From the sequence record NC_055708.1: DNA of 64,000 nucleotides. The stretch is one strand, 5' to 3'. This document shows positions 4,865-52,429 of the stretch, one piece after another. Every line of letters starts with the position of its first letter. Position 1 is the stretch's first letter. The notes under the pieces are model-generated. The model did no database searches. It saw only the letters and a program-made list of their open reading frames with translations, and was not told where the DNA came from. A program made the translations under genes and the position numbers. This stretch comes from Enterobacteria phage ATK47.

Positions 4865-6435
4865 TAAAAATCCTCTTGTTCTTGGTCGGGGTCTTGGAAA
4901 CGAGCCTCTTTCGACTCTTCTTCAATTTGCTTAGCCTCTTGTTCAATTTCCTCGTCAGACATCTGAAGAATATCTTTCATAGCTGTTCTGTGAGAAATAT
5001 ATTTACCAATAAATGGTTCGGCCATCTGAAGCATATTAATGCGACGCTCCAGAATCTCAGCATCCTTTAATTCCGAGAAATAACTATCCCGATGAAATTT
5101 TATCTTAATATTATTTATTTCATCATTCCACTCATCTTCTGTAATAATTCCTTTAAGAATTAAATTAGTTTTAAGCGGGTCTAGGAATATCTCTTCAAAT
5201 TTATGTTGCAGCTCACGAATAAATTTACCAAATGACAATTCATCTCGTGTAATAGAAGTACCAGCATCAAACTGTATACCACCTTGGTCACTTGGAATAC
5301 GGGTAATAGGAATACGTAAAGCCATATAAAGCGCATTACGGAACCAACGTACATCTTCCATATTTCCAGTATTATCTGCACCTGGTAATGTGTCAACTTC
5401 TGTTACTGCTTTACCATCACGTCGTTGTAACCAATAATCTTCGGTCATCGACATAATATGCTGCTGGTTTTTAATCTTGCCTGTAGTAGCATCATATGCA
5501 ATACGGTTTTTCATCGTATTCATAACATGCTGCATATGTTCTGCTGCTTTTCTTGAAGGCATATTACCTGTATCAACGTACCATACACGACGATCGGGAG
5601 CACGAGTAATACGATAAATTACGACGGCATCTTCAAGAAGTTTTAATTGGTTCGCCGGCTTAATAGCCCGATGCAAATAACCGATGATATTTTTACCACA
5701 ACAATCAACTAAACCAGAATGGGCATAAACAATCGCGGCTTTAGGGATTTTTATTTTTGTGCCAGCTTCATATATGCGGCCATCACAAGCATAAGATTCG
5801 TGTGATGTGTCATAAATGAAATATTCTTTATAACCCTTGACTATTTTAACACCGGCTTCAGTGGTTGTAATAACTTCACGGACATATTGAACTTGACGTG
5901 GGTCTAAACGACGAAGCTCTTTAATACCTTCTTTAGGGCGTTTAGGGTCAATAATTTTATGGAAGAAAATTCGAGAATCTACATACCAACGCCTAAAATG
6001 GTCTGAACCTTTACGTTGGAAAGATAAATGATTCAACACTTCGTTAAATTCATCCAACATCATTGATTTTATATTTGGACTAAATTTTGTGTTGTCTAAA
6101 TTTATAGAAACGACTTCTGTGTCATCTTCATATACGATAGCATCAGAAACTATTTCAGAGACTGCATTATCCACTTCATAGTTCGTCATCAAATTTCTAT
6201 ACGTATCGATTAATTCACGCGTTGATTTGAGCCCTGGTTCTTGGCTACCGAACATTCTCTGAAACATAGCATTATATGTTTGCTGTGCTTCATTTTCAGA
6301 TACTTCGTATTCTTTAGCACCGTCGTCTAATTTTGGTGAGGTGATCGATTCTAAATTTTCTTTTTCTTGGTCTTTGTAATCACGTTCGTCCATTTTTGCC
6401 CATGGAGCAAACAAACTTAAGATATTAAATTTCAT
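4864..6435 (-). CDS. 20: portal vertex protein gp20
   Basis: 523 aa; size and synteny as T4 gp20. Confidence 0.9.
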
Positions 6436-6463
6436 TGTATTCTCCGAATGGGAATTATAGTTA

Positions 6464-6471
6464 TATTTATA
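6464..6471 (-). promoter_or_regulatory. T4-type late promoter TATAAATA (gene 20)
   Basis: Exact TATAAATA on minus strand 28 nt upstream of gene 20 ATG. Confidence 0.6.
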
Positions 6472-6519
6472 TGGACTTCTCCGTCATCACGGGAAGCTGG
6501 GGATTTCTCCCCAACCAGA

Positions 6520-7011
6520 TTATTCCCACCAATCAAGAGCAAGAGTTACTTCGAACGTTTCAATCTCGTTATTACTGTCCCAGTCAAGAGATACTTCACC
6601 AACGTTAGTAGGCCACAAGCCAACAATTTCAACTTCTTTAGTGACCGTTTTAGCATCACGAGCAAATTGACGAACGATAGCAGACTTTTTATATTCAGCA
6701 GGTTTACCACCGGTAATTTCATTACCTTGTCCTGCTGCAATACCTTGCCAATCAACAAATTTCTGACGAATGCTATGAGCATCATCGTTCATTACTGTAA
6801 TAGTCCAATCATCAAATGTACGATCACCAGCCACATTAATTTTACGGTTCATATAAGAAACAGGAACCTTTTCAACGATCGCAGCAGGAAGAGCCGTAGC
6901 ACGACACTGGAAGCTAAAGTTTTGCCCAAGATAAGAGATTTCTACTTCGAACAGGTTAGGGCGAGCGAAATCACCAGATTCGAAGGCACGAGTTACGTCA
7001 TCTACAAACAT
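6520..7011 (-). CDS. 19: tail tube protein gp19
   Basis: 163 aa, identical length and position to T4 gp19. Confidence 0.88.
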   Translation of the reverse strand: MFVDDVTRAFESGDFARPNLFEVEISYLGQNFSFQCRATALPAAIVEKVPVSYMNRKINVAGDRTFDDWTITVMNDDAHSIRQKFVDWQGIAAGQGNEITGGKPAEYKKSAIVRQFARDAKTVTKEVEIVGLWPTNVGEVSLDWDSNNEIETFEVTLALDWWE

Positions 7012-7083
7012 ATTAGCCTCTGTAGTAATATGGGCTTAGGATTAACCGGATGCCCATAGAATTAATTTTTAAACGATATAGTA

Positions 7084-7091
7084 TATTTATA
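7084..7091 (-). promoter_or_regulatory. T4-type late promoter TATAAATA (gene 19)
   Basis: Exact TATAAATA on minus strand between genes 18 and 19. Confidence 0.55.
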
Positions 7092-7092
7092 T

Positions 7093-7110
7093 GGGCTACC
7101 GAAATAGCCC
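7093..7110 (-). terminator. hairpin after gene 18 (GGGCTA-N6-TAGCCC)
   Basis: 6-bp inverted repeat directly 3' of gene 18 stop and 5' of the gene 19 late promoter. Confidence 0.45.
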
Positions 7111-7123
7111 ATCAGGCGTCTTA

Positions 7124-9106
7124 TTAACCACCTACAGCACCAATCAGTTCGTCGAAATCGGCACCAGTTGCTGTTGCTACAAAGTTCAACGTAATATAAT
7201 TTATCGAGCGGGCAGGTTGTAAGTAGAAAGTAGCTACAAATTCATTACGGTCGATAACTGCTGGGGTGTTATTGGTAGTATCACAAACAACTTTAAAGTT
7301 ATATACACCACCGAGAGCTTTAATACCCTGTAGATATTGAGAAGTCTCTGTACGGAAAGAAGAACGGGTAAATGCGTTGTTCAATTCAAACAGGCGATAT
7401 TTAGATGCTGAACCAATGTTCGTTTTAACCATATTGAACAAACGACGAACGTTAATACGGTCAAATGGTGAAGGAACGGAAGTGGCAGTTTTATCACCAT
7501 ACAGAACATATCCGTCACCGCCGGTGCCAGTAACAGGGTTAATAGCTTCCTGATACAAACGATCACGTTGTGGTTGACGAGTTTCAATTGCAAGCTTAAT
7601 AACGTTAAGAATTTGTCCACGGTTATAACCGGCCGGAGACATCCAAGGTTGAGAAATATTGTCTGTGCGAGCACAAAGACCTGCAATATCAGCAGCTAAC
7701 GGAACCCAACGATTCACGTCATTATATTTGTCATATTGATATTTATAGTTACCGTCAATAGCAGCATAAGTAGAACTTACATTAAAGTTATTATCAGTGT
7801 AAGTTCCTGATGCAGTACGCCAATCAACCAGATTATCAACTGCACGATTAACAGGAATACCGACTATAGTTGAACGTGGTGGTGAGCAAAGAACCAAGCA
7901 ATCTTGGCGAGAATCACCAATTGCTACAACATGTTTCTGAACCGTGGAAGCAACTTCTAAAGATTCACCTGCACAAGAACCGGCAATAAACAACTGCGCA
8001 TTAACAGATTCGCGGTCAGCAAACAAATCCCAAGCTTCCATTAAATCACCAGCGTCAACCGTTTCATTAGATGATAAGCCACCACTCAGTTTGATTACGC
8101 CAGAGAAACCTTTTGGCCAACCTTGTGCAGTAGCGAAAATATAATTGCTTGCGCCTTTAGCAAAGAAATCATCAATAAAGATATTACTACCATAAATATC
8201 GCGTTCACCACGTTTAGTAGAAAGAACTACACTCTGGACTACAGCATCGTTACGACGAACGATAATTGCATATTGGTCATCTGTTTGTGGGCCATACCCA
8301 AAGATTGCTTTAGCCGTAGATGCACGAGTACCACCATCAGGATAAATTTTTAACTGGGCTGAAGCACCTTTGTCATAGTCTGCTTTAGATACGATTTCAA
8401 TTTCGAGCTGGTCCCCAAGTTCACCAGGATAAAGAGCAACTACGCCTGGGACACCATATTTTTTAATAGATTCTTGGAAAGTTACAGAAGTAATAGCTTC
8501 TTCAGAAGTTTCAACTTCAGTTAACAGAATACCAGAATCAGTTACGATAGAACCAATTGTAATAACGCCAGAGAGCCCAGAAGAAGAACTGGCTACTTCG
8601 GCGGTCCAGTTAGAACCCAATGCCGGATATTCATTAATTTCTTTTGCACGAGCAATAATTTTACCGGTTGGGATATAAATGTTAAGAATTTTACCATCGA
8701 CATCAACTGAAGTTACATAACCATCTGCTTCAACAGTTTCAGTCAAATACTTAACGATAATTTTATCACCAACCGCATAGTTACTACCAGCAGCAGAGAT
8801 TGTGAATTCAATATTGCCTGCTACAGGAGATGAGTTCTTAGCAGTATCACGATCAACTGCGCGTACAACACGAAGGTCATTACCATATTGAAGGAAGTTC
8901 ATAGCAGACATGAAATAATCTGCTGTATCTGTATTAGGAGTACCAAACATATCAACCAATGCAACTTCATCAGTGATTTGTTTAATCTGGAATGCAGGTC
9001 CCCATTGGAATTTTCCAGCCAGGGCAGCAGTACCAGTGGAGTTATTAACTACAGTACTCTGTACGGTAGTTTCTTTGAGCTCAACGCCCGGAGAGAGAAG
9101 TGCCAT
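7124..9106 (-). CDS. 18: contractile tail sheath protein gp18
   Basis: 660 aa; size and synteny as T4 gp18. Confidence 0.9.
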   Translation of the reverse strand: MALLSPGVELKETTVQSTVVNNSTGTAALAGKFQWGPAFQIKQITDEVALVDMFGTPNTDTADYFMSAMNFLQYGNDLRVVRAVDRDTAKNSSPVAGNIEFTISAAGSNYAVGDKIIVKYLTETVEADGYVTSVDVDGKILNIYIPTGKIIARAKEINEYPALGSNWTAEVASSSSGLSGVITIGSIVTDSGILLTEVETSEEAITSVTFQESIKKYGVPGVVALYPGELGDQLEIEIVSKADYDKGASAQLKIYPDGGTRASTAKAIFGYGPQTDDQYAIIVRRNDAVVQSVVLSTKRGERDIYGSNIFIDDFFAKGASNYIFATAQGWPKGFSGVIKLSGGLSSNETVDAGDLMEAWDLFADRESVNAQLFIAGSCAGESLEVASTVQKHVVAIGDSRQDCLVLCSPPRSTIVGIPVNRAVDNLVDWRTASGTYTDNNFNVSSTYAAIDGNYKYQYDKYNDVNRWVPLAADIAGLCARTDNISQPWMSPAGYNRGQILNVIKLAIETRQPQRDRLYQEAINPVTGTGGDGYVLYGDKTATSVPSPFDRINVRRLFNMVKTNIGSASKYRLFELNNAFTRSSFRTETSQYLQGIKALGGVYNFKVVCDTTNNTPAVIDRNEFVATFYLQPARSINYITLNFVATATGADFDELIGAVGG

Positions 9107-9133: not shown

Positions 9134-11450
<2,317 letters not shown>

Positions 11451-11459
11451 ATTTACCTC

Positions 11460-12284
11460 TTATTGTTTTCTAGGACCAGGAGGGGTTGGTGGAGTCGGGA
11501 TTGGAATATCATGAGTATAAGTTTGTTCAACTTCACCATTCCAATCTTGTGCTTCAACGTCTCTCGGTTTAATTTCTGTATCAACTGATTCAAAAACGCT
11601 GGCGGCTGTTTGAAGGTCTCGTTCGTTAGCATGAAAATCAAGATAAGTCGTTTTAATAAGGCCTTCAGCTGCGCCTACCGGAGGATACATCCATCCATTT
11701 ACTTCAAATGTTAATGACCACTCTAAACGTCGACGGGATAAATTATCACCGTCTATTTGTTCATCCATTGCTGCTGCCATCCATACGACTTTAATATCCC
11801 TTTCAAATGGAATATCCTGCCCATATTGCTCAATCATAGTCGTATTAAAATGCGGCTGAAAATATGGAATAATTTGCTCAACGATTTGGAACATATCATC
11901 TTCATAACGAGTAAAGATGCTCAGTTCAAAAATCATTTTAATTGGTGATGGGTTGTATTGGTCTACAATATCCTTAGTCGATTTACTCAAAAGAGAGTTA
12001 TTCAATATATTCGTTTTAAACGTTGGGTTATAAACGAAATCTACCATTTGAAGATTTATACGTGGTAGAATAGTTTCGACTTTAGCCACATCTTCTTGTG
12101 AGTTTATAGAGGTCCATTTATTAAGTTTCATCATAAAGTGCTCTTTAGATGCATACGTAATAGGAACTCTAATTAATTTATTGCCTGTAGACAATTGACG
12201 GTTAACTTGGATATTTGAAAACAAATCGCCCATCATTGTGATATATCGCCTGAACGACGAGTTGTAAAAATAACCAAACATCAT
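11460..12284 (-). CDS. 15: tail sheath stabiliser/completion protein gp15
   Basis: 274 aa; synteny with T4 gp15. Confidence 0.8.
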   Translation of the reverse strand: MMFGYFYNSSFRRYITMMGDLFSNIQVNRQLSTGNKLIRVPITYASKEHFMMKLNKWTSINSQEDVAKVETILPRINLQMVDFVYNPTFKTNILNNSLLSKSTKDIVDQYNPSPIKMIFELSIFTRYEDDMFQIVEQIIPYFQPHFNTTMIEQYGQDIPFERDIKVVWMAAAMDEQIDGDNLSRRRLEWSLTFEVNGWMYPPVGAAEGLIKTTYLDFHANERDLQTAASVFESVDTEIKPRDVEAQDWNGEVEQTYTHDIPIPTPPTPPGPRKQ

Positions 12285-33560: not shown

Positions 33561-33590
33561 GTTTACATGCTGATAGGATTATGGTATAGT
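33561..33590 (+). promoter_or_regulatory. T4-type early promoter within palindrome
   Basis: GTTTAC, 18 nt, TATAGT; ATAGGA...TCCTAT inverted repeat. Confidence 0.6.
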
Positions 33591-33620
33591 AGTCCTATCA
33601 AAATTAATTAGGAAAATAAA

Positions 33621-39029: not shown

Positions 39030-39393
39030 GCCCTGGGCGTATGAATACAAGCGTAAATTAATCCCAAATGAAGTACTATTTGGCCCTATTTTAGCTTTAG
39101 CATTTTTAATCTTTATGATTATAGGAGCTGTTTTAGATTCTAGTGAAGTTATATCGTCTGATGCAGCATTTTCATTAATGTTCGTCGCACCACTTATTGT
39201 ACCGTTTTTATTAATGCCTATTAATTGGGCGGGATATTGGCACCAAGGCCGTCATCACAGAGCCCGATTAAGAGAATGGAAAGTTCAGTGCGCAAAAGCC
39301 CAAGCTCAGTATGATGAAGCTGTTAAAAAGTATGAATATGAAGAAGCTATGGAATTCGTTAAGGAAATAAGATGCAAAAGCCTCAACTCTTAA
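38998..39393 (+). CDS. small membrane protein (131 aa), two TM helices
   Basis: Weak RBS, overlaps upstream gene by 32 nt; hydrophobic helices; C-terminus EFVKEIRCK. Confidence 0.5.
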   Translation: MSKPTLYMPSKPWAYEYKRKLIPNEVLFGPILALAFLIFMIIGAVLDSSEVISSDAAFSLMFVAPLIVPFLLMPINWAGYWHQGRHHRARLREWKVQCAKAQAQYDEAVKKYEYEEAMEFVKEIRCKSLNS

Positions 39394-39731
39394 CCGTATG
39401 GCCTTCTCTTGGTGAGAACATTCTAATTTTTATTATGAGTATTGGCATGGGATTTGCCTTTGGATTAGTTGGATTTCTTATTGACGGCGTTGTGTTAGGA
39501 TTTATAGGGAACACTGGTGGATTCACAGACCAATGGCAGGACTTACGGTATACCCAAGCCTTTGCATCCATCGCATCATTTTGTACTGTAGTCTATTTTT
39601 ACTACGATTTTATAAACCACAACAAGAAAAATAAAAAGGTTTACGCTTCTCAAATGATTAGTTATAATGAACTCCTAGCTAGACGTGAAAATGAAACAAT
39701 CGAAAACTTTATTAAGGAATGTAGAAAATGA
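39372..39731 (+). CDS. small membrane protein (119 aa) ending ENFIKECRK
   Basis: SD AAGGAA; two hydrophobic helices; conserved C-terminal tail. Confidence 0.6.
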   Translation: MQKPQLLTVWPSLGENILIFIMSIGMGFAFGLVGFLIDGVVLGFIGNTGGFTDQWQDLRYTQAFASIASFCTVVYFYYDFINHNKKNKKVYASQMISYNELLARRENETIENFIKECRK

Positions 39732-40033
39732 GTAAGATTATTGAAATTAAAGTACCAGAGTTTAATGATGCCAAATCCGCTTCAGATGCAATTTATAAAC
39801 TTCTGAATCAAGCTGAACGTATCGAAGAAGAAGCAACAAAGATCGCAGACCAATATGCCGTATCATTTTCTGTAGGTGATTATGGTAGTGGTCGTACTTA
39901 TTATCCTAAGGGTGAAATCGTATCCCAGTGGATGAAAGATGAAATTGAAAATAATGGCGGCGATGTTAAGCGTGAAGGTAATGGATACGTTATTACTGAA
40001 GGTGCTTGGGTTTCGTCTTCTGCGTTGTGCTAA
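39728..40033 (+). CDS. tandem paralogue A (101 aa), C-terminal GAWVSSSALC
   Basis: SD AAGGAA overlapping previous stop; shares YG-x-G-x-TY and GxWVxSSxxC with next two genes. Confidence 0.65.
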   Translation: MSKIIEIKVPEFNDAKSASDAIYKLLNQAERIEEEATKIADQYAVSFSVGDYGSGRTYYPKGEIVSQWMKDEIENNGGDVKREGNGYVITEGAWVSSSALC

Positions 40034-40042
40034 GGAATCATT

Positions 40043-40315
40043 ATGTCTAAAGAACAAACCGAACTGGCTGAAGCTGTAGCAAAAATCTATGCAGCTATTG
40101 AGGCTGCCAAAGAAATTGCTGATAAACAAAACACAACATTCGACTTGTATCCAGCTTATGGTATGGGTGGAACCTATCATTCACCAGGACATCTTAAAGC
40201 CGATCTTGAACGTTGTACAAAAAACGGTTATGCCGAATGGGCTGACGTTTACCAATACGACTACAACCTGAGCCTCGAAACTGGTGGTTGGGTCGCATCT
40301 TCTCACACTTGCTAA
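40043..40315 (+). CDS. tandem paralogue B (90 aa), C-terminal GGWVASSHTC
   Basis: Junction TGCTAAGGAA-N5-ATG shared with paralogue A. Confidence 0.65.
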   Translation: MSKEQTELAEAVAKIYAAIEAAKEIADKQNTTFDLYPAYGMGGTYHSPGHLKADLERCTKNGYAEWADVYQYDYNLSLETGGWVASSHTC

Positions 40316-40324
40316 GGAAACAAT

Positions 40325-40522
40325 ATGTCTCGTGAATTAGATTGTGCTGTACGTACGGCAGTAGCTGCTCTGGAAAACCTGTTCCAAATTGCAACAGAAG
40401 AACGCGAAGAAGTTACATTATGGATTGAAGATAACGCAGGTCTGAATCTCCAGGACGCGATCTCATTATCCCACAATAGTATCACTGTTCAAGGCTGGGT
40501 ATCATCTAGTTATTCTTGCTAA
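40325..40522 (+). CDS. tandem paralogue C (65 aa), C-terminal QGWVSSSYSC
   Basis: Same junction sequence and C-terminal motif as A and B. Confidence 0.6.
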   Translation: MSRELDCAVRTAVAALENLFQIATEEREEVTLWIEDNAGLNLQDAISLSHNSITVQGWVSSSYSC

Positions 40523-40526
40523 AACA

Positions 40527-40556
40527 GTTTACAACAAGATAGGGCTATGTTATAGT
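40527..40556 (+). promoter_or_regulatory. T4-type early promoter within palindrome
   Basis: GTTTAC, 18 nt, TG-t-TATAGT; ATAGGGCTA...TAGTCCTAT inverted repeat. Confidence 0.6.
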
Positions 40557-40584
40557 AGTCCTATCAAAACAAATGGAGTCCACA

Positions 40585-40824
40585 ATGATTTATTACGAAA
40601 GTATCGGAACCAAAGTGGTTGGTAAAACCATTACTCGTGAAAAGTTTGCAAAGATATTCGATATGCGTTATAAAAAATCTGAACACAAAGGCATCCGATT
40701 CGAAGATGCGCACTGTACAATTTGCCCTTATAATGAAGACATAAACGGTACAATCGTTCCATTGGTAGAGGCTTCACATGATGACCTCTGGGATGAATAT
40801 AATATCGCATGTCGTGAAATTTAA
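40585..40824 (+). CDS. hypothetical protein (79 aa)
   Basis: ATG 40585 preceded by GGAG; His and Cys residues near the C-terminus (possible metal site). Confidence 0.5.
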   Translation: MIYYESIGTKVVGKTITREKFAKIFDMRYKKSEHKGIRFEDAHCTICPYNEDINGTIVPLVEASHDDLWDEYNIACREI

Positions 40825-40852: not shown

Positions 40853-41809
40853 ATGATGTTAGTTATTGGTTCTCGTGCACTTCACTATCACGGTCTTATT
40901 GATTCTAGCGCTATTAAAAATAGTGATTGGGACTTTATTGCGGACCAAGGTTCTTGGAATGTATTCAAAAATCAAATGATGGGTGTATATGTTCACCAAG
41001 ATAACCCTGATGTCCAAGTTTTCAAATGCTTCCATAACGGACGCGAAACTCATTTTGAAGCATACATCGTTCCGGCTATCACTAACGTTCGCGAACTAGT
41101 CGGTGAACTCACTCCTGAAGATTTCACGTCTTCTTATGACCTTTTAAAATACGCCAAGAAAAATTTGACTAAAGACCGTTTGAACGGGTTTTACTGGGCA
41201 ACTCCTGAGATATGTCTTGCAATTAAGATGTCTCATCGTTTCAAGAAAAATAATCCATTCTTTTTAAAGACTATGAACCATATTCAGTATCTTCGTGGTA
41301 AAGGTGTTACACTGAACGATGAACTTACTGAAATTATGCTGAAACGCCAGAAAGAAACCTTGAATTATGCTCACCCAGTTCTTGACACTTCTAAAAGTGC
41401 GTTCTTTAAAGATGACATCTATACATATGACCATGATACTATTCATGAAGCCATTGCACTAACAGACCGTCCAGCGTATACATTTTATATGAAAGATGGT
41501 TCTGAAGTCATGACCTCACGCGAGAAGTTCGAATCATTACCAGAAATGGTCAAATTGGCCGGCGTATACGAAGAATCATGTGTACTAGCGTTAGAACGTT
41601 CTCAGATTCCTAATAACTTTGAAATCCATCCACGTGATAGTTTTATGATGGCCCTTGAAAAGGTCTGCACATCAATCACATCAGGATGGTTCCGTGAGTT
41701 CGCTTGGGAAAATTATAGCAAAGTAGTAAGTATGTACCAAAGCTTAGGACACGACGATTACGTCAAGCGTTTCAAACAAAACTTTCATATGGTAAAACCT
41801 TTCAAATAA
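40853..41809 (+). CDS. Pol-beta-fold nucleotidyltransferase-like protein (318 aa)
   Basis: N-terminal VIGSRALHYHG...NSDWDFIAD fits the hG[GS]-x(9-13)-D-x-[DE] NTase signature; rest uncharacterised. Confidence 0.45.
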   Translation: MMLVIGSRALHYHGLIDSSAIKNSDWDFIADQGSWNVFKNQMMGVYVHQDNPDVQVFKCFHNGRETHFEAYIVPAITNVRELVGELTPEDFTSSYDLLKYAKKNLTKDRLNGFYWATPEICLAIKMSHRFKKNNPFFLKTMNHIQYLRGKGVTLNDELTEIMLKRQKETLNYAHPVLDTSKSAFFKDDIYTYDHDTIHEAIALTDRPAYTFYMKDGSEVMTSREKFESLPEMVKLAGVYEESCVLALERSQIPNNFEIHPRDSFMMALEKVCTSITSGWFREFAWENYSKVVSMYQSLGHDDYVKRFKQNFHMVKPFK

Positions 41810-41822
41810 TTTCACAAAACAG

Positions 41823-41851
41823 TTTACAAGGTCTGTAGTTGTTGATACTAT
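41823..41851 (+). promoter_or_regulatory. T4-type early promoter within palindrome
   Basis: GTTTAC, 17 nt, TG-a-TACTAT; GGTCT...AGACC inverted repeat. Confidence 0.6.
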
Positions 41852-41889
41852 AGACCTATCAAAACAAATGAGTGAATGGAGATATAAAA

Positions 41890-42090
41890 ATGACTACTTT
41901 GAATAAACGTTTCGGTAAAGCTAAACCTGGTTGTGCAGCAGAACGTCGTTATGTTTTCGCTCAGTTAGAAGATGTAGAGTATCAGATTAATCAAGTTCAC
42001 ATTACTGGTATCGAGCCTATGTGTGGCCTTGAAGCTCTTCGTGAAGTTCGTGATGGGTATCGTCGTGACATCGAAGAAATGTCAAAATAA
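41890..42090 (+). CDS. hypothetical protein (66 aa)
   Basis: ATG 41890 preceded by GGAGA. Confidence 0.5.
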   Translation: MTTLNKRFGKAKPGCAAERRYVFAQLEDVEYQINQVHITGIEPMCGLEALREVRDGYRRDIEEMSK

Positions 42091-42120
42091 GTGTACAAAC
42101 TGATAGGACTATGTTATAGT
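42091..42120 (+). promoter_or_regulatory. T4-type early promoter within palindrome (variant -35 GTGTAC)
   Basis: GTGTAC, 18 nt, TG-t-TATAGT; ATAGGACTA...TAGTCCTAT inverted repeat. Confidence 0.6.
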
Positions 42121-42148
42121 AGTCCTATTAAAACATGAGGAGAATATT

Positions 42149-42454
42149 ATGAAATTAGGCGAAACCAACCGAATTGGTCTTTTAACAATATTTGTATCAC
42201 TTTTTTACGCAGCTCTTTCTGTTGCAGTATTACAAAAGGCTTACAGTATGGATGGTGTTCCTGGTTTTGTATTCTTATCGCCGTTTTTGCTATTCGTTGG
42301 AGCATTGTTATTATATGCCACGACTAGTTTCGACCATAACGTCTGGGTCAATTATAAATGTAAATTGTCTGAAGAAGAACACGCAGAAGCTCGTAAAAAA
42401 GCTATTGAATCTACCAATCTAGAAAATTTCATTAAAGAATGTCGAGGAAAATAA
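42149..42454 (+). CDS. small membrane protein (101 aa) ending NFIKECRGK
   Basis: SD GAGGAGA; two hydrophobic helices; conserved C-terminal tail. Confidence 0.6.
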   Translation: MKLGETNRIGLLTIFVSLFYAALSVAVLQKAYSMDGVPGFVFLSPFLLFVGALLLYATTSFDHNVWVNYKCKLSEEEHAEARKKAIESTNLENFIKECRGK

Positions 42455-42455
42455 T

Positions 42456-43142
42456 ATGAATAGTTCTAAAGTGTTTAATAGTCAAGCTCGTGCAGTAGGT
42501 GGTTTTGCTCATGCGATTAAAAATGACCAGATTAAAAACGAGCCTATGTTCTTTAATTGCGATTTGAATTTTGCTTTTGATAACGGCGGTCCAATTACTC
42601 GTAGCTTTATCCAAAATCTCCCTGACGATTGGAAAGACTCGGATGTAGTATTTGATTCACGAGTCCATATGCTGATGCCTGGTTGGTATCCTGCTATTCC
42701 TGGTTATCACCATGATGACGTACCACGCCCGGATATTCCGGTTGGTCAACATTTTATTACTGCAGGACAACCTGACTATGACAATCCTCGCTATTTGTCT
42801 GAACATATTCTTGGTCTTGTTAACGCTGATGTGTGTCCTACTCATTTTGCAACAGGAACTGCAGAGTTCAGTCAGATTCCTGATGGCGAACTTATCTATC
42901 GCCAGTGTCACAAAGAAGTCCTCGAAAAAATTGAAAAAGGTGAACTAGAGAAATGGGAAGCTCCAGATCGTACTCTTCTTCAGTTTGATTGGCAAACATG
43001 GCACACTGGTTCTCGTGCAATTAGTAATGGATGGCGTTGGTTCGGACGTGTATCTCGTAATACAGACCGAGTTAAAAAGATTACCAATGAAATTCGTGTC
43101 AATGCTCAAGTTTATCTGGAATTCCCTATGGAAGGCTGGTAA
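42456..43142 (+). CDS. putative 2OG-Fe(II) oxygenase-like protein (228 aa)
   Basis: H85-x-D87 ... H183 ... R198-x-S200 spacing fits the 2OG oxygenase facial triad plus RxS 2OG-binding motif; not verified. Confidence 0.35.
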   Translation: MNSSKVFNSQARAVGGFAHAIKNDQIKNEPMFFNCDLNFAFDNGGPITRSFIQNLPDDWKDSDVVFDSRVHMLMPGWYPAIPGYHHDDVPRPDIPVGQHFITAGQPDYDNPRYLSEHILGLVNADVCPTHFATGTAEFSQIPDGELIYRQCHKEVLEKIEKGELEKWEAPDRTLLQFDWQTWHTGSRAISNGWRWFGRVSRNTDRVKKITNEIRVNAQVYLEFPMEGW

Positions 43143-43633
43143 TGATTAACAAAACATATTGGTCTAATATAGACGATGGCAACGAAGGTATTTCGTACTA
43201 TTCAGTGGATTGGACAGGATGTCCATCCTACTTAGTGAAACGTATTTGCCAAGAATTTAAAATCGACCAGCCAGCAGGTATTATCGTGAACAGATACATT
43301 AATGGATATCAACCTATCGATGAAGTAATACGAACAACTCAAGCTGAGCTTGAAAAGTTTTTCAATAAGTGCCAATGGATAACAGGATGGATTATATTTG
43401 TACCGTCGGTATGGTTTTTCAGTACTAAGGTGAGTTCTTTCGGATTTGTTGATATTATTGCTATCTTATTAGCATCTAGTATCGTAAGTGTTGTTGGTGG
43501 CATCATTGGCGGCGGTACCGCCGCCATCATTATTAATCTTATTAAAAGTAGTTTACAAGAACATAAAGACAAGATAAAAGCCAAGAATAATGAAGTTGAA
43601 CGTTTTATTACCGAATGCAGGAATTTGAGATGA
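43142..43633 (+). CDS. membrane protein (163 aa) ending ERFITECRNLR
   Basis: C-terminal hydrophobic helices and conserved tail; ATGA overlap with neighbours. Confidence 0.6.
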   Translation: MINKTYWSNIDDGNEGISYYSVDWTGCPSYLVKRICQEFKIDQPAGIIVNRYINGYQPIDEVIRTTQAELEKFFNKCQWITGWIIFVPSVWFFSTKVSSFGFVDIIAILLASSIVSVVGGIIGGGTAAIIINLIKSSLQEHKDKIKAKNNEVERFITECRNLR

Positions 43634-52372: not shown

Positions 52373-52401
52373 TTTACATCTTGGTAGGACTATGTTATAG
52401 T
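52373..52401 (+). promoter_or_regulatory. T4-type early promoter within palindrome
   Basis: GTTTAC, 17 nt, TG-t-TATAGT; GGTAGGACTA...TAGTCCTACC inverted repeat. Confidence 0.6.
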
Positions 52402-52429
52402 AGTCCTACCAAAACAAACGGAGAACAAA

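Follow-up and report, generated by a model that had tools for sequence, protein, structure and literature searches.

A viral two-domain nucleotidyltransferase encoded beside small acidic proteins with an invariant C-terminal tail

Introduction

Several enzymes of the Pol-beta nucleotidyltransferase (NTase) fold modify small proteins. Examples are GlnD with its partner PII, GlnE, MntA/HepT and CitX/MdcG, of which the last target a serine of an acyl carrier protein, an acidic protein of ~100 aa. GlnD carries a second, metal-dependent domain in addition to its NTase domain. The MenT/AbiEii enzymes belong to chromosomal toxin-antitoxin systems and have an upstream MenA/AbiEi antitoxin. PsmN, an ANT(2'')-like enzyme with the NTase fold, decorates the phosphorylated C-terminal serine of a ribosomal peptide (PMC6993621). 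In T4-type phages, mobile regulatory cassettes termed PeSL (promoter-early stem-loop) have been described (PMC2839356, PMC4122927).

Here we analyse a locus in a 64,000-nt stretch of Enterobacteria phage ATK47 (NC_055708.1), a Mosigvirus, i.e., an RB69-like T-even phage; this whole stretch is referred to as the window. The locus encodes an NTase-fold enzyme, hereafter the NTase, and small proteins related to each other.

In common with GlnD/PII, GlnE, MntA/HepT and CitX/MdcG, the locus has an NTase-fold enzyme and, as proposed here, a phosphodiester-linked group that would be placed on a hydroxyl of a small partner. It differs from these systems in showing no significant sequence or profile similarity to them and in having its candidate acceptor motif at the extreme C-terminus. 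Like GlnD, the NTase has a second domain; this is not a recognisable HD domain. MenT/AbiEii systems are chromosomal, whereas the family described here is viral; the proteins encoded upstream of the NTase are small and helical, occur in one to six copies per locus and match no known family. There is no sequence-family match to MenT/AbiEii either, and the NTase is not basic. ANT(2'')-Ia, LnuA and PsmN have no sequence similarity to the NTase, which is found in neither a lasso-peptide nor a resistance context, and its partners are lytic-phage proteins of 60-160 aa, not the short leader-core peptides of bacterial clusters. As in RiPP-like clusters, a putative modifying enzyme is accompanied by several small genes whose products vary in their bodies and have one short invariant motif in common; the surroundings of the NTase loci revealed no peptidase, no recognition element and no exporter. 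Elements of the locus resemble the PeSL cassettes: early-promoter-like hexamers overlap a hairpin of 11-12 bp, and such units recur at the borders of genes in a hyperplastic region. The cassettes account for the flanking palindromes, but not for the NTase protein. The locus is best described as a known kind of system, in which an NTase-fold enzyme has a small protein as its dedicated partner, but with a second domain, a partner family and a viral distribution that are new.

Results

The features of the locus are collected in Table 1. The 318-aa ORF proposed in the initial annotation was confirmed; it begins with an ATG, its N-terminus is exactly as quoted there, and a GAGG sequence lies 8 nt 5' of the start codon. 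The gene is positioned between the tRNA cluster and gene e. The segment 40400-42200 has 100% identity with phage ATK48 and matches many Escherichia and Shigella phages at 98-99.8%. In RB69, the equivalent gene RB69ORF134c is located inside the block ORF132c-139c, between e.2 and e.3, and the annotation of this block contains no 'similar to T4' note; in T4, e.2 adjoins e.3 directly. The NTase is annotated as 'hypothetical' in nearly all phage records listed. One GenBank record names a homologue 'putative nucleotidyl transferase', and the family is otherwise unannotated or mis-annotated. In the searchable literature covered here, no mention was found of DUF7275, DUF7277, RB69ORF134c or this module.

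Table 1. Coordinates of the NTase gene, its domains and the neighbouring elements, numbered from the first nucleotide of the window.
Feature	Position	Strand	Description
NTase gene	40853..41809	+	two-domain nucleotidyltransferase, 318 aa; RB69ORF134c equivalent; member of PHROG 2141
N-terminal domain	40856..41155	+	Pol-beta-type NTase core, aa 2-101; Pfam DUF7277; G6-S7, D25-x-D27, E69
C-terminal domain	41210..41767	+	all-helical; aa 120-305; Pfam DUF7275; highest conservation in the protein
Small acidic protein 1	39728..40033	+	101 aa; pI 4.6; phrog_899 (E 1e-22); ends ...GAWVSSSALC-stop
Small acidic protein 2	40043..40315	+	90 aa; pI 4.8; phrog_899 (E 3.5e-19); YGMGGTY motif; ends ...GGWVASSHTC-stop
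Small acidic protein 3	40325..40522	+	65 aa; pI 4.2; phrog_4882 (E 8e-37); ends ...QGWVSSSYSC-stop
83-aa ORF	40573..40824	+	between small-protein array and NTase gene; own PeSL-like promoter; H-C-x-x-C and a later Cys
PeSL-like early promoter	40521..40575	+	5' of the 83-aa ORF; TTTACA-17-TATAGT, TG-extended; hairpin with 11-bp stem, z -5.0
PeSL-like promoter	41816..41870	+	directly 3' of the NTase stop codon; start of the following transcription unit; hairpin, z -4.2
Third palindromic promoter-like element	42085-42139
Sigma-70-like promoter	39640..39668	+	just 5' of the first small-protein gene; TTTACG-17-TATAAT, 10/12; consensus match only

The protein had been regarded as an orphan, which is contradicted by its database matches. 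Pfam assigns residues 2-101 to DUF7277 (E 3e-27, 95.6 bits, cut-off 27) and residues 120-305 to DUF7275 (E 3e-79, 265.6 bits, cut-off 27), PHROG 2141 matches over the full length (E 5e-150), and related proteins form thousands of clusters. Up to E 10, the NTase matches no further Pfam family. Using tblastn, homologues were detected in 732 phage records, which include Straboviridae of Escherichia, Aeromonas, Acinetobacter and Klebsiella, phAPEC8-like phages, Otagovirus phages of Pseudomonas, phages of Xanthomonas, Stenotrophomonas and Vibrio, and actinophages. Both domains are present in 100 of 101 diverse family members. Large protein collections contain 2,242 NTase clusters when grouped at 90% identity and 1,586 when grouped at 50%, nearly all of them ~300 aa long and with both domains. 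Among prokaryotic genomes, represented by one genome for each of 185,579 species, only five matches were obtained, all on phage-looking MAG contigs, and a search of BFVD returned only unnamed family members, including proteins of the giant viruses Sylvanvirus and Satyrvirus. As judged from these searches, the NTase family is virus-only. A link to the arabinosyl-hmC DNA modification of RB69 was also considered; it was dropped because the family is spread over many phage genera and families far outside Mosigvirus.

Some family members have a different architecture. The DUF7275 proteins of giant eukaryotic viruses, A0A3G5AJ90 (Sylvanvirus, 508 aa) and A0A3G5AE53 (Satyrvirus, 571 aa), are 200-250 aa longer than the phage enzyme, and the extra parts could hold informative fused domains. 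In the metagenomic protein P0054 (308 aa), the NTase domain is replaced by an N-terminus of the DUF1190 type, which starts like a signal peptide or lipoprotein (...LSGCEV...) and is joined to an intact DUF7275 domain; this may reflect a genuine domain exchange or a chimeric assembly.

The N-terminal signature for which a Pol-beta-type NTase had been proposed is not a chance match, since the residues concerned are 97-100% conserved and occupy the expected strand and helix positions in a structural model. Among 151 representatives sharing 34-73% identity with the NTase, conservation was 99% for G6, 97% for S7, 95% for A9, 99% for D25 and 100% for D27, and position 69 was E or D in 149. All six residues (G6, S7, A9, D25, D27 and E69) are invariant in 40 homologues with at least 47% identity. 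AlphaFold2, run with the family alignment, gave a confident model (pLDDT 91.9, pTM 0.86). In this model the V-I-G6-S7 segment is located at a strand-to-helix junction (strand 2-5, helix 6-12), D25-W-D27-F opens strand 25-31, and F-E69-A lies inside strand 64-73. The hallmarks of the Pol-beta superfamily, i.e., hG[GS], [DE]-h-[DE]-h, a third carboxylate and the alpha/beta NTase fold, are all found. The conserved residues and the predicted structure show the gene product to be a Pol-beta-fold nucleotidyltransferase with intact conserved catalytic residues.

The best structural matches of the model among solved structures are MenT1, MenT3 and MenT4. According to the model, the nearest structural relatives of the protein are MenT/AbiEii and the small ANT/Lnu enzymes, and it is a sequence member of neither group. 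In the 101 diverse members, sporadic weak Pfam matches occur to the NTase families DUF6036, DUF4269, MdcG and RelA_SpoT, the MdcG match being found in one member with an E-value of 0.06. Sequence searches against solved structures, with the single protein and with two profiles, gave a chance match to PsaB or nothing. No similarity was found to CD-NTases or to any of the PADLOC defence-system models, including AbiE, and a search of NCBIfam gave no match.

The ~250 residues that follow the signature had been described as unassignable, and this was right for most of them. We treat residues ~105-170 as NTase companion helices of the MenT type and residues ~170-318, for which no relative was found among solved structures, as a domain of no known fold. 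Conservation reaches 90% or more at about 48 positions of DUF7275, compared with five in the N-terminal domain. In the 151 representatives, K125, H194, D195, H198, E240, E241, E248 and R249 are invariant, H128 and R281 are 99% conserved and K270 is 98% conserved.

The three small proteins encoded upstream and their counterparts in phages PN09, phAPEC8 and DP45 are mutually homologous. They match phrog_899 with E-values from 1e-22 to 2e-6, or phrog_4882 in the case of the 65-aa protein, which joins the same family with an HMM built here. None belongs to a Pfam family or has a meaningful match in PADLOC, and a word-indexed protein search returned 58 relatives, none of them named. The window contains exactly these three members, all beside the NTase gene. 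Across the loci examined below, the family comprises 174 HMM matches in 77 clusters at ~60% identity, with lengths of 60-160 aa, a median pI of 4.4 and 1-6 copies per locus. An N-terminal amphipathic helix, similar only to designed helical bundles, ends in '...IADE-x-G-h-x-F' and is followed by an acidic Gly/Tyr-rich linker, often with YGMGGxYY or GDYGxGRTYYP. The proteins end in a strictly C-terminal tail, G-x-W-x-[SA]-S-S-x-x-C-COOH, with W-x-x-S-S-x-x-C-COOH as the core. When 37 divergent members were aligned, the only invariant residues were the Trp, the Ser at position -4 and the terminal Cys, and in 74 of the 77 cluster representatives this Cys is the very last residue.

Variants of the small proteins were also noticed. 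In RB69 (NC_004928, 7735-7887, minus strand), the first small-protein gene appears to be broken and is annotated as ORFs 138c and 139c. Only a 50-aa ORF remains, ending in ...WVSSPALC, in which a tail Ser is replaced by Pro; the 101-aa gene is intact in the window and in phage 55. A longer subfamily of 139-155 aa, ending in ...AW[CV][SP]SSMxC, is found by a regular expression and missed by the HMM. It is encoded ~1.5-2.2 kb upstream on the plus strand at five loci (L043, L048, L049, L072 and L077), and ~6-6.5 kb downstream on the minus strand at four others (L050, L051, L054 and L076), where it is the only family member and has switched strand.

The initial annotation viewed the NTase gene as a stand-alone cassette. 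This view is no longer tenable, as the gene is tightly linked to the three small ORFs. ORFs of the same kind are located just upstream of the NTase gene in phages PN09 of Pseudomonas (five), phAPEC8 (two) and DP45 of Acinetobacter (two), and no other flanking gene is common to the NTase loci of PN09, phAPEC8, DP45 and Annadreamy. The linkage was quantified in 80 diverse NTase loci with 10-kb flanks (~1.58 Mb, 12,465 ORFs) by an iterated HMM started from 10 seeds, and by a separate regular expression for the C-terminus, which was written after the first examples and not fitted to the 80 loci. The HMM detected at least one small protein in 72 loci. In 173 of 174 cases its matches are upstream, on the strand of the NTase gene and at a distance of 0-4 kb (164 within 2 kb), with one downstream, and no HMM-detected copy was found elsewhere or on the other strand within the 10-kb flanks. 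The regular expression gave 178 matches, 160 of them shared with the HMM; five regex-only matches are 5-6.5 kb from the NTase gene. In the eight loci lacking an HMM match, divergent copies are present upstream in three, a longer member is encoded ~6.5 kb away on the other strand in four, and in the last, L027, no small protein was detected.

The linkage persists after de-replication, being present in 18 of 18 NTase clusters at 60% identity and in 26 of 27 at 70%, and it was found at nine of ten independent loci (L087-L096). In a reverse look-up, all four divergent small proteins were encoded within ~1 kb of a gene with PF23942 and PF23940 (DUF7277 and DUF7275), a result that is partly circular because the HMM seeds came from NTase-linked copies. 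At two of these loci the NTase gene is followed directly by the copy looked up and preceded by five more copies. In protein P0245 (377 aa), the N-terminal ~84 aa have the layout of a small protein (...QWNSSGGPAC) and are fused in frame to the NTase. The truncated actinophage homologue gp196 of Annadreamy (251 aa) has no small-protein neighbours. These data place the NTase gene in a conserved virus-specific module with 1-6 small acidic proteins, nearly always encoded just upstream on the same strand. The conserved gene arrangement points to a phage-encoded protein partner or substrate, instead of the host proteins, nucleic acids or nucleotide signal suggested as possible targets in the initial annotation.

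A scan of T4 (0-99 kb) revealed neither the NTase nor a small protein, the sole match to the small-protein HMM being Tk.1 (17 bits). This protein (11346-11534, minus strand) matches the helical part of the HMM and is without the C-terminal tail. Two T4 proteins considered as counterparts of the NTase were rejected: nrdC.3 (308 aa) has no HMM match, and nrdC.11 (6435-7445, minus strand), annotated as 'nucleotidyltransferase', is unrelated by HMM.

The NTase gene had further been placed between two palindromic early promoters. Promoter-like palindromes do exist on both sides; the upstream one, as Table 1 indicates, precedes the 83-aa ORF and not the NTase gene directly, so the promoter-bounded unit consists of two genes, the 83-aa ORF and the NTase gene. 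Each of the three palindromic elements combines a match to TTTACA/TGTACA-17-TATAGT/TACTAT with a hairpin of 11-12 bp (z -4.2 to -5.0), whereas the promoter match in front of the small-protein array has no hairpin (fold z 0.04). From these promoter-like sequences, we infer that expression is early. The PeSL-like core TATAGTAGTCCTAYCAAAAY has four matches in the window against 0.02 expected, the copies at 33585-33604 and 52396-52415 (+) among them. This excess over chance indicates that PeSL-type cassettes are spread through the window.

The 83-aa ORF has no Pfam match and is unlike the NTase-flanking ORFs of PN09, phAPEC8, DP45 and Annadreamy. With neither a family nor a counterpart in these four distant phages, it is probably a lineage-specific insertion and not part of the module. 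The ORFs flanking the NTase gene (83 aa upstream, 72 aa downstream) were considered as a conserved partner or antitoxin and rejected, as they do not resemble the ORFs beside the NTase gene in the same four phages. A function could not be derived from the wider gene neighbourhood either, since the surroundings in the four phages have nothing in common.

Other genes near the module include three for small predicted membrane proteins, which are e.3-like (39372-39731), RB69ORF133c-like (42149-42454) and e.2-like (43142-43633), all on the plus strand. Their tails (...ENFIKECRK, ...ENFIKECRGK and ...ERFITECRNLR, respectively) look like those of a second paralogous family with a C-terminal motif. A 228-aa ORF (42456-43142, +), the equivalent of RB69ORF132c, has no Pfam family and lies inside the non-T4 insertion block of the module.

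Discussion

We tentatively favour a mechanism in which the NTase modifies the small proteins encoded beside it. The gene product would be an active Pol-beta-fold enzyme whose N-terminal domain binds NTP and metal through G6-S7, D25, D27 and E69. DUF7275 would pack on this domain as the helical domain does in MenT-type enzymes and provide an acceptor site that recognises the invariant tail, after which NMP or a related phosphodiester-linked group would be moved onto the hydroxyl of the invariant tail Ser. The His/Asp/Glu/Arg cluster of DUF7275 may only position the tail, or it may process the Ser-phosphodiester intermediate by removal or elimination. The small proteins as acceptor, the modified residue, the nucleotide used and the role in infection are what we infer for this mechanism.

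By analogy, a variable scaffold that carries one short invariant terminal motif has the look of an enzyme substrate, as in carrier proteins, RiPP precursors and the T-loop of PII. The substrate-like conservation of the tail parallels the near-frozen sequence of DUF7275. Gene linkage alone fits an inhibitor or regulator equally well. Further points count against the small proteins as substrate. Known Pol-beta-fold protein nucleotidylyltransferases are mostly directed at Tyr, not Ser. The closest solved structures, MenT1, MenT3 and MenT4, are those of enzymes whose target is the 3' end of tRNA and not a protein (PMC10435456). Locus L027, the four loci with only a distant copy on the other strand, and gp196 of Annadreamy likewise speak against this reading.

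The structural matches suggest that the NTase could instead act on RNA in the MenT/AbiEii manner, for example on host tRNA 3' ends, leading to translation shutdown or to tRNA repair or alteration, with the small proteins as antitoxin-like inhibitors or timers that plug the active site with their tail. We regard this as unlikely. The resemblance to MenT1, MenT3 and MenT4 leaves ~150 extra, extremely conserved residues of the NTase without a MenT counterpart, and there is no DUF1814 match for the NTase even at E 10, nor does that family occur among those listed for the 101 members. The gene order and the helical N-terminus of the small proteins mirror those of MenA1, a 68-aa helical protein that is encoded upstream of menT1 and blocks its active site, but the C-terminus of MenA1 is dispensable, whereas the C-terminal tail is the only invariant part here (PMC10435456). 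Acidic small proteins with a median pI of 4.4 could mimic nucleic acid, and the location of the NTase gene between the tRNA cluster and gene e would suit an action on tRNA; however, the NTase is near neutral (median pI 6.3), in contrast to the electropositive cavities of MenT1 (PMC10435456), and 1-6 divergent paralogues per enzyme would be unusual for an antitoxin.

A different possibility concerns the C-terminal domain only and could hold together with any of the other explanations. This domain might be a divergent HD-type metal-dependent phosphohydrolase, giving a bifunctional enzyme that adds and removes a group, like GlnD with its NTase and HD domains or the bacterial CCA-adding enzyme. 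The H...HD-x-x-H pattern is suggestive of such an HD-domain or phosphodiesterase identity, but neither a fold nor a profile supports it, and an HD fold with an H...HD...D metal site was not found in the C-terminal domain, which makes the assignment quite improbable.

Least probable of all is a stand-alone enzyme that acts on a small molecule or nucleotide signal in the manner of ANT(2'')/Lnu, with independent small proteins merely co-inherited in the hyperplastic early region, since the linkage holds across lineages with entirely different surroundings, is complete among the 60%-identity clusters and includes an in-frame fusion, none of the 174 HMM-detected copies lies elsewhere in the flanks (apart from which there are the five distant regex-only matches), and similarity to CD-NTases or PADLOC models is lacking.

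Modification of the small proteins by the NTase can be extended to a more general proposal, which we consider somewhat unlikely as it stands: a MenT/ANT-like NTase with a new helical domain would covalently modify W-x-x-S-S-x-x-C-COOH tails, constituting an unrecognised system of many lytic phage lineages and possibly of giant viruses. In the boldest version, nucleotidylylation of the Ser would activate it for elimination and the terminal Cys would close a lanthionine-type ring, in a phage pathway resembling those of RiPPs but with a novel mode of Ser activation. The S-x-x-C-COOH arrangement has the spacing of the AviCys ring of epidermin.

Although few phages have been studied as thoroughly as RB69 and its relatives, the NTase gene is mostly labelled 'hypothetical'. 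If the proposed modification is true, the early genes with which T4-like, phAPEC8-like, Otagovirus, Acinetobacter, Aeromonas and jumbo phages take over their hosts would include a new kind of enzyme-substrate pair. Two Pfam DUFs and phrog_899, one of the larger PHROGs, would also gain a concrete, testable function. Nucleotidylylation or ring formation involving the tail Ser and Cys would be new phage chemistry and might yield new factors for anti-defence or host manipulation. Should the small proteins turn out to be inhibitors, the module would represent a MenT-like toxin/antitoxin pair in lytic phages, which would be unusual as well.
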